Assembly: GCF_017302985.1 (NCBI RefSeq)
Contig: NZ_JAFIMU010000011.1
Coordinates: 1 to 61,685 of the forward strand
Length of the DNA stretch: 61,685 nucleotides
Source: Corallococcus macrosporus
GTDB lineage: Bacteria; Myxococcota; Myxococcia; Myxococcales; Myxococcaceae
Direction of reading: 5' to 3'
The notes below the pieces were generated by a model that was given only the letters and a program-made list of their open reading frames with translations, was not told the DNA's origin and did no database searches. Shown one piece after another: positions 24,840 to 29,199 of the stretch. Made by a program: the position numbers and the translations under genes. The stretch's first letter is position 1. Every line of letters begins with the position of its first letter.

Positions 24840-25238
24840 ATGAAGCGAGGCCAATGGAGAGGAGCCTGGGGGCTGGCTGCCGCGCTGCTTGGGCTTCCGG
24901 CGATGGGGCAGCTCGAGGAGCCGCCCGAAGACGCGCCGCAATACTCCTGCTTCGAAGCGGCACGAGAGGCCGGCGTGTTGAGCGAAACCAACGCGGCCCA
25001 GCTCTGCCAGGGAGCCCGTTCGGACGCCCCGGCGAAGTGTTTCCAGCGAGTCCAGGAGGAAGGGTTCCTCTCAGAGCCGCAAGCGCTCCAGCTCTGCCAG
25101 TATGCCCAGCCCTCGGATGATCCCGCGTCCTGTTTCCTCAAGGCGCGGAAGTCCTCGTTCCTGGACGAGACACAGCTCCTGCTGCTCTGCCGCCCGCTCA
25201 TCGCGGATCAGATGAACCTGTATCCCTACGGTCTTTGA
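24840..25238 (+). CDS. Secreted small protein with triplicated cysteine motif
   Basis: Signal peptide, then three ~30-aa repeats 'CF.......G.LSE...A.QLCQ'. Confidence 0.5.
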   Translation: MKRGQWRGAWGLAAALLGLPAMGQLEEPPEDAPQYSCFEAAREAGVLSETNAAQLCQGARSDAPAKCFQRVQEEGFLSEPQALQLCQYAQPSDDPASCFLKARKSSFLDETQLLLLCRPLIADQMNLYPYGL

Positions 25239-25239
25239 C

Positions 25240-25995
25240 TCAAGGGGCTGAGCGCCCGCCAATCGCAGGGAACCGCTCGTAGGCCCGCAGGAGCGCGTCC
25301 AGGTGGGCAGGGGTGTCCAGGTCGAGCGGCGCGTCGGTGAGCTGCACGACCCATCCGCCCGACTCCGTGCGACGCGCTCGCGAAAGCAGGTCCGCATCCC
25401 GGGCCGGGTCCGGGAATCCAATGGCCTGCGCGGCAGCGGCCGACCAGTAGTTCAACCACCCAAGGTAATAGGGAATCTCAGGCGAGCGGATGTGCTCGAA
25501 GAGCTTCAGTGCGGGAAGCCCTCGGCGCGGGGACGGTGGACCTTCCAGAGTGGGAGCAGTCTGATACGCGATGTCCACAGCGGTGTCGTATGGCGTCGCG
25601 TGTCCCCATGACGCGCGCGCTCCTTCCGCCAGGCCCTCGATTACAGCCGCCGCTGACGCGATCACAGGCTCGTCCAGGGGCATTTTTGCGTGCACCTCAA
25701 ACTGGGCCTGACCGCCTGCGCTGAAAAGCCCATCTCTTGCCCTGCCCCAGACCGTCACGGGGTAACGCAGGTCCCCATTGCACACGATGGGAAATCCGCC
25801 GTCCTCAATGCTGTCAAGGAGCCAAGCGTCTCGTTGCGGCAATGCAATGGGGCGCCCGCCTTTGGAGAGGCGCCAATCTAAGCGCAAGCCGGGCAGCGCC
25901 CTCTCCATTCCATGAACGCAATCAGCAGTGCGTCGGTCTTTTCCCACGAGCGCAGGCGCATAGACAATGACAGCAAGTTTTCTTCGCGCAGTCAT
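25240..25995 (-). CDS. Putative immunity protein for the upstream lipoprotein toxin (SitI-like)
   Basis: Start overlaps the stop of the toxin ORF. No recognizable catalytic motifs. GC intermediate between the toxin and the host background. Confidence 0.45.
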   Translation of the reverse strand: MTARRKLAVIVYAPALVGKDRRTADCVHGMERALPGLRLDWRLSKGGRPIALPQRDAWLLDSIEDGGFPIVCNGDLRYPVTVWGRARDGLFSAGGQAQFEVHAKMPLDEPVIASAAAVIEGLAEGARASWGHATPYDTAVDIAYQTAPTLEGPPSPRRGLPALKLFEHIRSPEIPYYLGWLNYWSAAAAQAIGFPDPARDADLLSRARRTESGGWVVQLTDAPLDLDTPAHLDALLRAYERFPAIGGRSAP

Positions 25996-26909
25996 CGCTT
26001 ACACCCTGTGACAACAACATTCAGAGACTGGTCCGCCTGCTGCAGCGCGTCTTTATGCACTTGAGTGCTCACCCCAACAACAAAGCCATACCCACACGCC
26101 GTCGCAGCTCTTCTTTCTTTCGTCAGCTGCTTGACTTCTTTTGCAATCTCTCGCTCCTGGACAAAGTCATTGTAAGTGTCGAACTGATGGGTCTTGATCT
26201 CCCACAGCTTGGGCACGCCGACTTGCAGCGCATCGAAGCGTACACCGTCCACAAGCACGTCCATGCCGGGATAACGGTTGGGCGGGAACTCGTCGGCGCA
26301 CTCATTATGCGCGTCGTCTTCGCCTGCGTGGGGCACGGGAACAGGCTCGCAACTGGCGCGGCCCGTCTGGCCCACGGGCACGGGCGGCACCGGGGGCTGC
26401 CTGCTCTGCCCCGCTGGCTGGGGCTTCAGCCTGGGACTGCGTTGCGCTTCAGCTTCCCGGGAGGCCACCTTCGTTCCACGTGAGGTCCCTGCTTCCTCGG
26501 GGTAGGCGTGGCGGAACTCATACGCATCCAGCTCTTCCTTGATGGCGGCGGCGACCACCACCACGCCAAGCACGATCACGGCTCCCACGGCGATCTCAGG
26601 GGCCGCCAGCACGCAGAACCCGACTCCCACAGCGGCGGCGTCAGCGGAGGCGACCGCGCATCTTCCCTCCGTGTCGTGGAACTCGATCCGGTCATGGTCG
26701 AGGGCCGGGTAGCAGCGCTCCACCAGCACGGGCCAAGGCTGGGAAGCCTCACGAACGACGCACCGCCCCCTGTCCGACCACGGCAGCGTCGCTGCGCGCT
26801 GGAGGTTGGCGTGCCTCGGATTCCGCGCCGCGCGAGCCGCTGGGCTCGGCGCGGACGTAGCGCAGGCAGAGAGGAAGAGAAGAAGTGCGATGCCTGCTCG
26901 GAGATGCAT
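25992..26909 (-). CDS. Lipoprotein polymorphic toxin with C-terminal restriction-endonuclease-fold (PD-(D/E)xK) domain; SitA-like
   Basis: Lipobox 'LLLFLSAC'. Hydrophobic segment 'VGVGFCVLAAPEIAVGAVIVLGVVVVAAAI'. C-terminus 'DVLVDGVRFDALQVGVPKLWEIKTHQ' has a D...E-x-K arrangement. The last ~90 codons show many A/T-ending codons (cat, act, aat, ttt, aaa, gaa, aga, gtt, tgt), unlike host genes. Confidence 0.6.
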   Translation of the reverse strand: MHLRAGIALLLFLSACATSAPSPAARAARNPRHANLQRAATLPWSDRGRCVVREASQPWPVLVERCYPALDHDRIEFHDTEGRCAVASADAAAVGVGFCVLAAPEIAVGAVIVLGVVVVAAAIKEELDAYEFRHAYPEEAGTSRGTKVASREAEAQRSPRLKPQPAGQSRQPPVPPVPVGQTGRASCEPVPVPHAGEDDAHNECADEFPPNRYPGMDVLVDGVRFDALQVGVPKLWEIKTHQFDTYNDFVQEREIAKEVKQLTKERRAATACGYGFVVGVSTQVHKDALQQADQSLNVVVTGCKR

Positions 26910-26919
26910 GGTCCCGTTC

Positions 26920-28141
26920 TAAACGACCGCGCATGAATCCCGATCGGCTCGGAGGGTAGGCAGGCGCTGGGAGCTGAAGGAAAGGGGCAGGAGCTCGCGC
27001 CGTTCGGCCTTGTGTGCGCAAGAACCGGATGAAGAAGCGAGCCCTGCCTCAGGGAAGGCAACAGCTGCGCCTGCGATGTCCTGACCGCAGGCGGCTGATT
27101 CGCTGGGGAGAGAGGACTGGCTGCCCGCTCACCCTGCGGCGGTGCCTGGCGGTAGCGAAGGTGGCCAGTGGTCAGTCACGGGCGCAAGCAGCGCGGCAGT
27201 TGCTGTGCGCCACGTCCACGGTGGTGTCCGCGGTTCAGCGCTTCCAGAAGTCAGGCCGAGAAGGCCTCTCGGACAGGCGCGCTCAGAATGGGCCACGCAA
27301 AGTGGACGAGCGATTTCGGCAGACGCTGCGCCGGGTGCTGGAAGGCACGCCGCAGCAGTCCGGTTGGCGGCGCACGACGTGGACGCGCGAGTTGCTGGTG
27401 CGTGAGGTGCAGAGGCGAGGCCGGGTACGCGTCTCGCCCGCGACGATGGGACGCGCCTTGGCCTCGGTGGGAGCCCACAGAAGGCGTCCGCGTCCCGTGG
27501 TGCGCTGCCCTTGGCCGGAGCGCCGACGTCGACGGCGCCTCTGGCAGCTGAAATGCCGTGCGGCCTTCGCCCGGCCCGACGAGCCCGTGCTTTTCGAGGA
27601 TGAAATGGACGTGCACCTCAACCCGAAAATCGGCCCCGACTGGACGTTGCCCGGACAGCGCAGAGAGGTCGTCACTCCCGGCAACAACCAGAAGCGTTTC
27701 GTGGCAGGGGCGCTGGATGCGAGCACGGCCCGGATGACTTGGGTGCAGGGGGAGAAGAAGACGAGTGCGCTCTTCATCGACCTGGTGCGCGCCGTGGACG
27801 CCGCCTATCCCAGAGCGAAGCGCCTACATTTCATCCTCGACAATGCCGCCACCCACTCCAGCAAAAAGACGCAGAAGGCGCTGGAGGCTCTGGGTGAGCG
27901 GCTGGTGCTGCACTTCCTGCCGCCGTACTGCCCGGAGGGCAACCGCATCGAGCGCGTGTGGTGGGACGTGCACGCCAACGTCACCCGCAACCATCGCTGC
28001 AAGAAGATGGAGGCGCTCATGACCGAGGTGGACGCCTACCTCGACGCACGGAACACCCAGAAGTCCGCCAGCCCCTTGCTGCGCGTCGCCTCCGCTCGAC
28101 GCGCAGCTTGAGACCGTTCGAGAATCACGATCGGTCGTTTA
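26920..28141 (+). mobile_element. IS630-family insertion sequence: 8-bp terminal inverted repeats AACGACCG, flanked by TA target-site duplication
   Basis: Left end 'cTAaacgaccg' at ~26919-26929; right end 'cggtcgttTAg' at ~28132-28142. Element about 1.2 kb. The TA dinucleotide on both sides is typical of Tc1/IS630 insertion. Confidence 0.75.
27014..28111 (+). CDS. IS630-family (DDE_3) transposase
   Basis: N-terminal HTH, then 'LFEDEMDVHLNP...HFILDNAATHSSKK...LHFLPPYCPEGNRIERVW', the DDE transposase of the IS630/Tc1 family. Stop TGA at 28109-28111. Confidence 0.85.
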   Translation: MRKNRMKKRALPQGRQQLRLRCPDRRRLIRWGERTGCPLTLRRCLAVAKVASGQSRAQAARQLLCATSTVVSAVQRFQKSGREGLSDRRAQNGPRKVDERFRQTLRRVLEGTPQQSGWRRTTWTRELLVREVQRRGRVRVSPATMGRALASVGAHRRRPRPVVRCPWPERRRRRRLWQLKCRAAFARPDEPVLFEDEMDVHLNPKIGPDWTLPGQRREVVTPGNNQKRFVAGALDASTARMTWVQGEKKTSALFIDLVRAVDAAYPRAKRLHFILDNAATHSSKKTQKALEALGERLVLHFLPPYCPEGNRIERVWWDVHANVTRNHRCKKMEALMTEVDAYLDARNTQKSASPLLRVASARRAA

Positions 28142-28173: not shown

Positions 28174-29199
28174 CTACGTGGGAGTGGCCGGGATGACTCC
28201 CTCGCGGTTGTCTTTGAGGAGCTGGGTGATGCGGACCTTCGCCTGGGGTCCCAGCGTGGGATTGAACATCAACGACGGCAGATAGAAGCGGTAGGTGCCG
28301 CCGTCCTGCCAGCGGTCCGTGTTCCAGACCTTGTCACAGCGAATCGACGCCAGCACATCCTCCGGGGCCACCTCCTCACAGGCCACCTCCCGCGCCGCGA
28401 GTGGCCACGCGACCTGGTCCTCGTGTGAATCGAAGATGGGCGGGTAGTACTTTCGCAGCAGCTCCACCTCCGCACGCTGCTGCTCGTACGTGTTGAAGCC
28501 CTCGCGGAGGAAGCACACGAAGACGTAGGTCTTCGTCACGGCCGTGTCGTTCGGGAAGATGGTGGCCCCGGTCACCCGCGCCGAGAAGCAGTGCGCGGAC
28601 TCCGGGAAGATGTCGCCGACCTTGGGAAAGGCCTCCTGGTCCAGGGTCATCCCGATATACGAGTTGGTGCGGTACTGAATCGTCCATGGCTTGCCGCCAT
28701 CGTCATCATTCTTCCGCACGGGAAAGCCCTTCTTGAAGATCTTCAAGCAGGTCAGCGGGCTGGGCAGGTTGAGTCCGCGAAACGCCAACATGTTCAGCGG
28801 GCCCTGCCGGTACGTCACATCGGTATAGGCAAACGAGGGCTCGAACCCGATCTCCGCGGTCCAGAGGAAGTACGCATCGCACCTGTCGCACGAATACATG
28901 GATGCGTTCGTGTTGAAGATGCCGTCCGCTCCCTGCCGCGTTACGTCATCCGAACGGCAATTGAGCAGCGGACACCGGGGCTTGAAGACCATCGTCTGCT
29001 TGCTCTTCTCCATCGCCACGACCTGCTGCGCCTGGGTCAGCGCTCCGAGCACCGGGGCGGAGTGACGCCGCTCCAGTCGCGGTGGGCCGGGCTGCCGGTT
29101 GACCTCCTCGTTGAGGAGCTTCTGGCAGTAGCGACAGGACGTGGCGCGCCCTTCGGACATGAAGGTCTTCATGCAGCCGTAGCACTTGTAGAACGGCAT
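28174..29199 (-). CDS. Hypothetical protein with N-terminal zinc-ribbon (CxxC...CxxC)
   Basis: 'MPFYKCYGCMKTFMSEGRATSCRYCQKL' is a Cys4 ribbon. Host-like GC-rich third positions despite lower overall GC. No other recognizable domain. Confidence 0.5.
   Translation of the reverse strand: MPFYKCYGCMKTFMSEGRATSCRYCQKLLNEEVNRQPGPPRLERRHSAPVLGALTQAQQVVAMEKSKQTMVFKPRCPLLNCRSDDVTRQGADGIFNTNASMYSCDRCDAYFLWTAEIGFEPSFAYTDVTYRQGPLNMLAFRGLNLPSPLTCLKIFKKGFPVRKNDDDGGKPWTIQYRTNSYIGMTLDQEAFPKVGDIFPESAHCFSARVTGATIFPNDTAVTKTYVFVCFLREGFNTYEQQRAEVELLRKYYPPIFDSHEDQVAWPLAAREVACEEVAPEDVLASIRCDKVWNTDRWQDGGTYRFYLPSLMFNPTLGPQAKVRITQLLKDNREGVIPATPT

Follow-up and report, generated by a model that had tools for sequence, protein, structure and literature searches.

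Within the window analyzed here (a stretch of 61,685 nucleotides from Corallococcus macrosporus, contig NZ_JAFIMU010000011.1, taken at its full length), two adjacent minus-strand genes form a cassette that is likely a polymorphic toxin-immunity system of the Myxococcaceae and Archangiaceae. The upstream gene (25992-26909) encodes a 305-aa lipoprotein with a C-terminal DUF6310 domain, and the downstream gene (25240-25995) encodes a 251-aa DUF5953 protein, as read from the list of open reading frames (ORFs) and their translations. We infer from sequence that the first protein is toxic and that the second neutralizes it, and the confidence just expressed applies to the explanation as a whole, including likely delivery by outer-membrane exchange (OME). 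We call the system polymorphic because the toxin domain occurs on swapped carriers, because the N-terminal module occurs with swapped C termini that each bring their own downstream gene, and because the immunity protein tracks the toxin in its divergence.

The toxin is a 100% match to JYK02_33020 (WP_207056894.1), annotated as a hypothetical protein on the C. macrosporus contig. An earlier sequence-only reading of this locus had allowed for an undescribed allele or an undescribed family. The second option falls away because both proteins already belong to Pfam families; the first is borne out, the nearest toxin being 85% identical and the nearest immunity protein 89% identical. The cassette is a distinct new allele of a large family that is catalogued in Pfam and lacks a functional label.

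DUF6310 as a Predicted Nuclease Domain

The C-terminal domain of the toxin (residues 185-305; 25995-26357, minus strand) matches Pfam DUF6310 (PF19829) over residues 182-303 with an E value of 2.9e-57 and 192.6 bits against a gathering cut-off of 27, and we place the domain start at residue 182-185. The domain has a restriction-endonuclease-like alpha/beta core and a D...(D/E)xK motif, with D226 (26232-26234), E237 (26199-26201), and K239 (26193-26195) as the putative catalytic residues. These three positions are at least 90% conserved in the family and are kept in all DUF6310 architectures examined (FD226A...WE237-I-K239), and Cys187, His194, His201, Cys204, Cys272, and Cys303 are likewise conserved across the other DUF6310 architectures. 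The PD-(D/E)xK-like region that the sequence-only reading had picked out ("FDAL...LWEIK") is therefore present and conserved throughout the family.

Judged by its predicted fold, DUF6310 is a Tox-REase-5-like PD-(D/E)xK nuclease toxin domain, the likeness lying at the level of the fold only: sequence identity to Tox-REase-5 is 6-7%, and the toxin has no match to that Pfam family (PF15648) at E <= 1. Profile searches against toxin and immunity families, which the sequence-only reading had recommended, gave a divided answer, with DUF6310 and DUF5953 matched and no Pfam Tox-REase or Imm52 family among the matches. Compared with PDB sequences, the toxin and immunity profiles gave chance-level matches only; neither protein had a match in NCBIfam or PADLOC, no toxin homologue was found in the plasmid collection, and a literature search on DUF6310 and DUF5953 found no papers.

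The Tox-REase-5 DNases of type VI secretion systems (T6SSs), namely TseT/TsiT of Pseudomonas aeruginosa and TseTBg of Burkholderia gladioli, have Imm52 immunity proteins; as DNases, TseT and its homologues from Burkholderia belong to the PD-(D/E)xK superfamily (PMC9990079). The cassette shares with these systems the catalytic D...ExK motif and an immunity gene directly downstream whose product has 235-250 aa; it differs from them in the low identity and the missing Pfam and PDB matches just described, and in using a lipoprotein module rather than PAAR, VgrG, or the T6SS.

Exchange of Toxin Domains and Carriers

Polymorphic toxin systems in general are said to be treated by Zhang, Aravind et al. 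2012. Our exhaustive domain-based HMMER search recovered 199 representative proteins of 60 to 1130 aa, and DUF6310 forms the extreme C terminus of every one of them. The carriers include proteins with eCIS_core (formerly DUF4157), named for extracellular contractile injection systems (eCIS), proteins with Transglut_core, one CBM_2 protein, and a number of unrelated lipoproteins. The lipoprotein module at the N terminus of the window toxin is in turn fused to two other C termini, one a domain of about 110 aa ending in "...GARPGHTPRPIRVRVK" and the other a Cys-rich domain of about 60 aa, and each of these is followed by its own small ORF (149 aa and 187 aa) instead of DUF5953. With at least three C termini on one N-terminal module and DUF6310 on many N termini, the polymorphic-toxin architecture proposed in the sequence-only reading is upheld. 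The two alternative domains and their 149- and 187-aa downstream ORFs, found at L081:3001-4253 and L083:3001-4295 of our locus set, fall into no Pfam family and are candidate new toxin-immunity pairs; just downstream at L081 lies a DUF2381 gene, a member of a Myxococcus paralogous family.

The family is large, with more than 1000 full-length toxin homologues at 65-85% identity and 268 loci in species-representative genomes, several per genome and some of them in tandem arrays (e.g., L013 and L072). Myxococcus fulvus HW-1 has at least two tandem toxin copies, AEI62835.1 and AEI62837.1 (= LILAB_04580), together with a further immunity homologue. Among named isolates, the N-terminal module is found in Corallococcus, Myxococcus, Pyxidicoccus, Stigmatella, Archangium, Cystobacter, Melittangium, Vitiosangium, Citreicoccus, and Pseudomyxococcus. 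Two full cassettes, at 77% and 66% identity, also occur in an assembly labelled Comamonas sp. KCTC 72670 (L017 and L064; BNCN01000001.1 and BNCN01000015.1), a record that is probably a mislabelled or contaminated Myxococcaceae genome.

Known polymorphic toxin systems, such as the PD-(D/E)xK toxins of CdiA-CT/CdiI and the toxins associated with eCIS (DUF4157/eCIS_core), are similar in three respects: the C-terminal toxin is exchanged among unrelated delivery domains, the cognate immunity gene lies directly 3', and the toxin-immunity interface is hypervariable. Behind eCIS_core carriers, DUF6310 and DUF5953 even travel as one unit. What sets the cassette apart is its short myxobacterial lipoprotein with a transmembrane (TM)-like helix, in place of a filamentous, Rhs, or contractile-injection carrier.

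DUF5953 as the Cognate Immunity Gene

The downstream protein (25240-25995, minus strand), for which no signal peptide is predicted, matches Pfam DUF5953 (PF19378) over residues 19-250 with an E value of 5e-117 and 390.1 bits against a gathering cut-off of 25. We inspected gene pairing at 80 loci from species-representative genomes and computed overlap and alignment statistics over 66 loci. A DUF5953 gene stands directly downstream of the toxin in 80/80 loci, and also downstream of two metagenomic eCIS_core-DUF6310 proteins; behind a transglutaminase-DUF6310 carrier, the next gene is an unrelated 118-aa ORF. The sequence-only reading had the second ORF starting inside the toxin stop codon, and this is what we see here and, as a 4-nt overlap, in 62/66 related loci: in the shared ATGA, the immunity ATG takes its A from the last sense codon of the toxin and its TG from the TGA stop.

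The divergence of the immunity protein follows that of one part of the toxin. The more alike two immunity proteins are, the more alike are toxin residues 241-305 (rho 0.59 for pairwise identity) and, less closely, 185-240 (0.45), whereas no such correlation holds for the N-terminal domain (0.15), helix (0.05), and linker (-0.03). Because the gene is invariably adjacent, is paired with DUF6310 on eCIS carriers as well, and diverges together with the toxin, we take DUF5953 to be the cognate immunity gene, the role that the sequence-only reading had given to this ORF.

The distal part of the toxin (residues 241-305; 25995-26189, minus strand), which includes the surface helices 248-271 and 283-292, is hypervariable, with pairwise identity of 0.43-0.54 in residues 241-270 and 286-300, and it has a low GC content at third codon positions (GC3, 0.47-0.67). 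In the immunity protein, the N-terminal half (residues 1-125; 25621-25995, minus strand) is variable, as judged by segment identity and synonymous divergence (dS). Identity to relatives changes as in a mosaic, from 80-93% over the N-terminal module of the toxin to 37-54% over immunity residues 61-125, and over the variable module segment identities to relatives are 0.37-0.54 between flanks of 0.8-0.9. Toxin residues 241-305 and immunity residues 1-125 are thus presumed to form one mosaic specificity module, in which the two proteins would contact each other.

UniRef gives some DUF5953 proteins the name "Immunity protein 52". Residues 206-238 of the immunity protein also have a co-linear local match at E 0.17 to residues 211-243 of PDB 4rho_A, an uncharacterised chain of 259 aa; the DUF5953 consensus "sggwvvqltdapldldnpahl" is aligned there with "TGTIIVSVTDAPFSVDNPEHV", the common pattern being "TDAP..DNP.H", and among solved structures 4rho_A may be the closest relative of the immunity protein.

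A Low-GC Module within the Cassette

No 200-nt stretch of the 61.7-kb window is lower in GC than positions 25999-26198, at 0.50 where the mean is 0.70 (z -4.8). Toxin codons 241-300 have a GC3 of 0.53-0.57 and the first 30 codons of the immunity gene one of 0.40, and whole-gene GC3 of the toxin and immunity genes is 0.69-0.73 vs about 0.8-0.99 in neighboring genes. The sequence-only reading had remarked on the AT-rich last ~90 codons of the toxin gene and had seen in them a foreign toxin domain, swapped in. The dip is real, but it covers residues 241-305 and the start of the immunity gene rather than the whole domain. Since the domain starts at residue 182-185 and yet codons 181-240, already within it, keep a GC3 of 0.77, the dip does not mark a domain boundary, and DUF6310 is moreover the usual C terminus of the family, as the full-length homologues attest, so that the idea of a swapped-in foreign domain finds no support. 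Across the 66 related cassettes, GC3 is reduced over the whole pair (about 0.6-0.8) and has its family-wide minimum at toxin residues 241-305; the anomaly is largely a property of the family, somewhat stronger in the window copy.

We also considered that low GC3 might simply be the mark of a variable region, and rejected this: per-residue conservation and GC3 correlate with rho 0.10 in the toxin and 0.32 in the immunity protein, which explains the dip only partly. The variable module has a dS of 1.0-1.2 against about 0.7, at a ratio of nonsynonymous to synonymous divergence (dN/dS) of about 0.3. Because dS is raised while dN/dS stays at this level, we read the module as a set of old, deeply diverged allelic lineages embedded in recombination-homogenized flanks, and not as a recent import. 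Positive selection is ruled out at the resolution of segments, with dN/dS of 0.16-0.43 everywhere.

The Lipoprotein Module and a Proposed Mechanism

The toxin has at its start a type II signal peptide with the lipobox L-S-A-C (residues 1-16; 26862-26909, minus strand). Its N terminus reads MHLRAGIALLLFLSAC, and after LSAC the mature protein would begin CATSAPS, with Cys16 as the would-be lipidated N terminus, Ala at +2, and Ser at +7. The lipobox LLLFLSAC noted in the sequence-only reading is confirmed, and its canonical form ([LVIAFM][ASTVIGC][GAS]C) is kept in 63/66 family members, with Ala at +2 in 61. Lipoproteins are sorted to the outer membrane if +2 is not Lys and +7 is not Ala (PMC5562445), and because both residues satisfy this rule we predict an outer-membrane lipoprotein.

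Next comes a small conserved domain (about residues 30-90; 26640-26822, minus strand), presumed to be periplasmic, with AlphaFold2 (AF2) confidence (predicted local distance difference test, pLDDT) of about 81-86 over residues 31-70. Cys50, Cys66, and Cys84 within it, and Cys99 just past it, are invariant columns of the family alignment. The invariant motif G95-x-G97-x-C99-x-L101-x-A103-P104-E105 leads directly into the hydrophobic TM-like helix (26541-26597, minus strand), which consists of E105 and the apolar residues IAVGAVIVLGVVVVAAAI. The hydrophobic segment of the sequence-only reading is found in this run of 18 consecutive apolar residues (106-123), which is bounded by Glu105 and Lys124 and conserved family-wide. 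AF2 models a helix over residues 104-135, at low confidence, and on the Hessa scale the best 19-mer, which includes Glu105, scores +0.19, with about -2.5 kcal/mol for residues 106-123 alone (a derived, position-independent sum). A charged, proline-rich linker (residues 124-184; 26358-26540, minus strand; mean pairwise identity 0.51-0.57 over 136-180 and AF2 pLDDT <50) connects the helix with the nuclease domain.

These parts suggest how the system could work. The lipidated toxin would most likely move between kin cells by TraAB-dependent OME, as SitA toxins do, and the hydrophobic helix would be the "escort" part that gets the nuclease across the inner membrane of the recipient, where DUF6310 would kill by cutting nucleic acid in the cytoplasm. 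The co-translated DUF5953 protein would stay in the cytoplasm of the producer, its N-terminal half binding the variable nuclease helices (toxin residues 241-305) and so neutralizing its own toxin allele. Recombination among the diverged copies of a genome could then shuffle the N-terminal delivery module against the modules of toxin tip and immunity protein, giving strain-specific compatibility types.

Relation to SitA/SitI

The SitA/SitI systems are reportedly described in Vassallo et al. 2017, Vassallo & Wall 2019, and Vassallo et al. 2021, the second of which is said to define SitA4-7, with M. fulvus HW-1 as the source strain of the tested SitA4-7 alleles. SitA proteins are lipoproteins of six families set by their N-terminal escort domains: SitA1/2, SitA3, and SitA5 are modular toxins, SitA4 and SitA6 carry AHH nucleases, SitA4 is non-modular, and SitA7 is a "predicted DNase", non-modular in cultured genomes, for which partial resistance maps to a restriction-modification-like cluster (PMC8546572). 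The cassette is like SitA/SitI in its lipobox with outer-membrane sorting features, its myxobacteria-specific N-terminal module and C-terminal nuclease, its downstream immunity gene in the same operon, its many diverged copies per genome, and its association with mobile DNA. Furthermore, SitA and traAB have been reported in the myxobacterial group to which the genera with the N-terminal module belong (PMC5562445). By analogy, membership in SitA/SitI and delivery of the cassette by OME are plausible.

SitA6/SitI6 correspond to pMF1.20/pMF1.19 (PMC7843461), a lipoprotein of about 220-240 aa (Pfam DUF2380) and a 255-aa protein (Gmx_para_CXXCG) whose genes overlap by 4 nt; the cassette is alike in size class and in the 4-nt overlap, and in both systems the partners are still DUF-labelled in Pfam. 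The nucleases differ, SitA4 and SitA6 having AHH domains in contrast to the PD-(D/E)xK domain of the cassette, and so do the helices: SitA6 has no apolar helix, and in SitA3 the toxin domain is preceded only by a weaker stretch rich in Gly/Ala/Val. The 507-aa conserved N terminus of SitA1/2 (PMC5562445) cannot fit into a 305-aa protein, and SitA4 is set apart by description only, as an AHH-bearing, non-modular family (PMC8546572).

For SitA7, the case is about evenly balanced: the toxin family could well be SitA7, an assignment argued from description that fits both the account of a non-modular DNase and the copies in HW-1. It is rather unlikely that the family stands outside the six named SitA families as a further class of lipoprotein toxins, with a compact module carrying its own membrane-inserting helix; this is a joint claim, which includes that the toxin crosses the inner membrane of the recipient without a host entry protein or else resides in the inner membrane and is delivered otherwise than by classical OME.

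An Insertion Sequence Upstream of the Cassette

An IS630-family insertion sequence (IS) lies upstream of the toxin gene (26920-28141, plus strand, including its TA target duplications; NCBIfam transpos_IS630, E 9e-58). The element itself spans 26922-28139 (1218 bp), with imperfect terminal inverted repeats, a transposase ORF at 27014-28111, and the TA duplications at 26920-21 and 28140-41. It lies 10 nt upstream of the toxin ATG and splits the cassette from its upstream region. On its far side is the ORF at 28174-29199, on the same strand as the toxin gene, and 33 nt separate the stop codon of this ORF from the element downstream; the gap between the two genes before the insertion was about 44 nt.

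Many related cassettes share a leader, about 70 nt long, that reads "...GCTGGCATACTCC...GGAAAGG.CGTGACC-ATG", of which the window copy retains little. Aligned over -80 to -1 in L003, L006, L010, L011, L023, L039, L042, and others, this leader reads [quoted passage not shown], and 21/64 loci carry ACTCC at a fixed place, about -59. The leader probably serves the cassette as a promoter or regulatory region of its own. A scan for sigma-70 promoters and terminators was uninformative.

Weighing the Alternatives

Several observations weigh against a SitA-like, OME-delivered toxin. Toxicity, neutralization by binding, and the outer-membrane location are all inferred, as are delivery by OME and the part played by the helix. 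In profile comparisons, the toxin family matches SitA6 in the signal peptide only, and the same holds for SitA3 of DK1622 (eLife supplementary file 3; hhalign probability 2%); the N-terminal regions of SitA1 (507 aa) and SitA3 (399-441 aa), with described escort domains of roughly 375-507 aa, dwarf the module of about 125-180 aa in the cassette. No sitB lies near the cassette, the link of DUF5953 to Imm52/TsiT is weak, segment-level dN/dS of about 0.3 gives no blanket signal of positive selection, and the IS630 element may have silenced or rewired expression of the window copy. Above all, an 18-residue apolar helix in a Sec substrate would be expected to act as a stop-transfer signal and inner-membrane anchor, leaving the nuclease in the cytoplasm of the producer, and OME reportedly does not carry inner-membrane lipoproteins (PMC5562445). 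Because the helix resembles a stop-transfer signal, we have only moderate confidence in the OME step, and two readings of the helix remain: an entry device across the inner membrane of the recipient, or a part of an addiction module or of another delivery route. As an addiction or post-segregational-killing module anchored in the inner membrane, the protein would have its lipidated Cys domain in the periplasm and, translocation being stopped by the helix, its nuclease in the producer's cytoplasm under the control of DUF5953, so that loss of the cassette, or faster decay of the immunity protein, would kill the cell; the effect would be to stabilize the mobile DNA around the cassette, with no attack on neighbors. 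The family-wide conservation of the helix would suit this topology, as would the tight coupling of the genes in non-conserved, IS-associated contexts, and for pMF1.20/pMF1.19, a pair related in kind, post-segregational killing was the first function described (PMC6091211). The same pMF1.20 was later classed as the OME-delivered SitA6 (PMC7843461), however; elsewhere DUF6310 is the C-terminal cargo of exported or injected carriers (eCIS_core and secreted multidomain proteins), a conserved lipobox and an extracytoplasmic Cys-rich domain would be purposeless in a purely intracellular device, and the swapping of C termini with their downstream genes on one N-terminal module is the signature of a delivered polymorphic toxin. 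We therefore consider an addiction module improbable.

An exported interbacterial toxin that travels by a route other than TraAB (outer-membrane vesicles, lysis followed by self-insertion of the helix, or some other system) is similarly improbable. It would account for the lack of homology to the SitA escort domains compared (SitA3 and SitA6), the helix could permit autonomous membrane insertion, and several unrelated delivery scaffolds do use DUF6310; but no secretion-system genes (PAAR, VgrG, Rhs, CdiB, or eCIS structural genes) are linked to the cassette in the window or at the 80 loci, where flanks lack conservation, the N-terminal module occurs solely in the OME-performing group of myxobacteria, and the lipobox has outer-membrane sorting features. 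We give hardly any credence to the idea of a non-toxin, a nuclease tethered to the membrane for housekeeping or DNA uptake and assisted by an accessory protein: repair and restriction enzymes share the PD-(D/E)xK fold, but a domain that forms the extreme C terminus of many unrelated carriers, is obligately paired with a small cytoplasmic partner, and is multi-copy, hypervariable, and without conserved genomic context points elsewhere. Compatible with delivery by OME or by another route and with an addiction module is a silenced or decaying window copy, in which the toxin gene has been cut from its promoter and the locus supplies nothing or, given internal transcription of the immunity gene, mainly immunity. 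This is possible, though clearly the less probable state: the IS630 element with its TA duplications sits 10 nt from the start codon, the leader of many family members is largely absent, and no sigma-70-like promoter was found in 25000-27100 by a scan that covered this one promoter type, a limit that also tempers the point; both ORFs are intact and full length with every conserved residue present, a Shine-Dalgarno-like GGGA remains, and read-through or outward transcription from the IS is possible.

Neighboring Sequences

Beyond the IS630 element, the ORF at 28174-29199 (minus strand, 341 aa) has a GC3 of 0.87 in a region of locally low GC (0.57-0.58 around 28600-28900), and its N terminus carries a zinc-ribbon-like CxxC...CxxC motif (MPFYKCYGCMKTF...SCRYCQ). 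It belongs to no Pfam, NCBIfam, or PADLOC family and has no homologue near any of the 80 toxin loci. As a sitB-like accessory gene it was considered and dropped, since it lacks a signal peptide as well as a homologue near any other family locus.

On the other side, the ORF at 24840-25238 (plus strand, 132 aa) converges on the immunity gene, with one base between the two stop codons. It has a signal-peptide-like N terminus and four "CF..A...GxLSE..A.xLC" repeats and falls into no known family; a homologue, 76% identical, lies about 3 kb from another toxin copy in C. aberystwythensis (L044:47-439). Elsewhere in the window, 40246-40445 is the second-lowest GC stretch (GC 0.51, z -4.5) and lies between divergently placed ORFs (end 40215, start 40330).

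Significance

For the field of kin discrimination, the finding is incremental, adding one more allele to a "barcode" repertoire that has already been described. It would provide a functional reading for two Pfam DUFs, DUF6310 as a nuclease toxin and DUF5953 as its cognate immunity protein, both of them common in social myxobacteria and present with eCIS-type carriers as well. The probable specificity site is mapped to toxin residues 241-305 and the N-terminal half of the immunity protein, so that allele swaps are straightforward. Furthermore, a conserved TM-like helix within a lipoprotein toxin raises the testable question of how such toxins reach or cross membranes.

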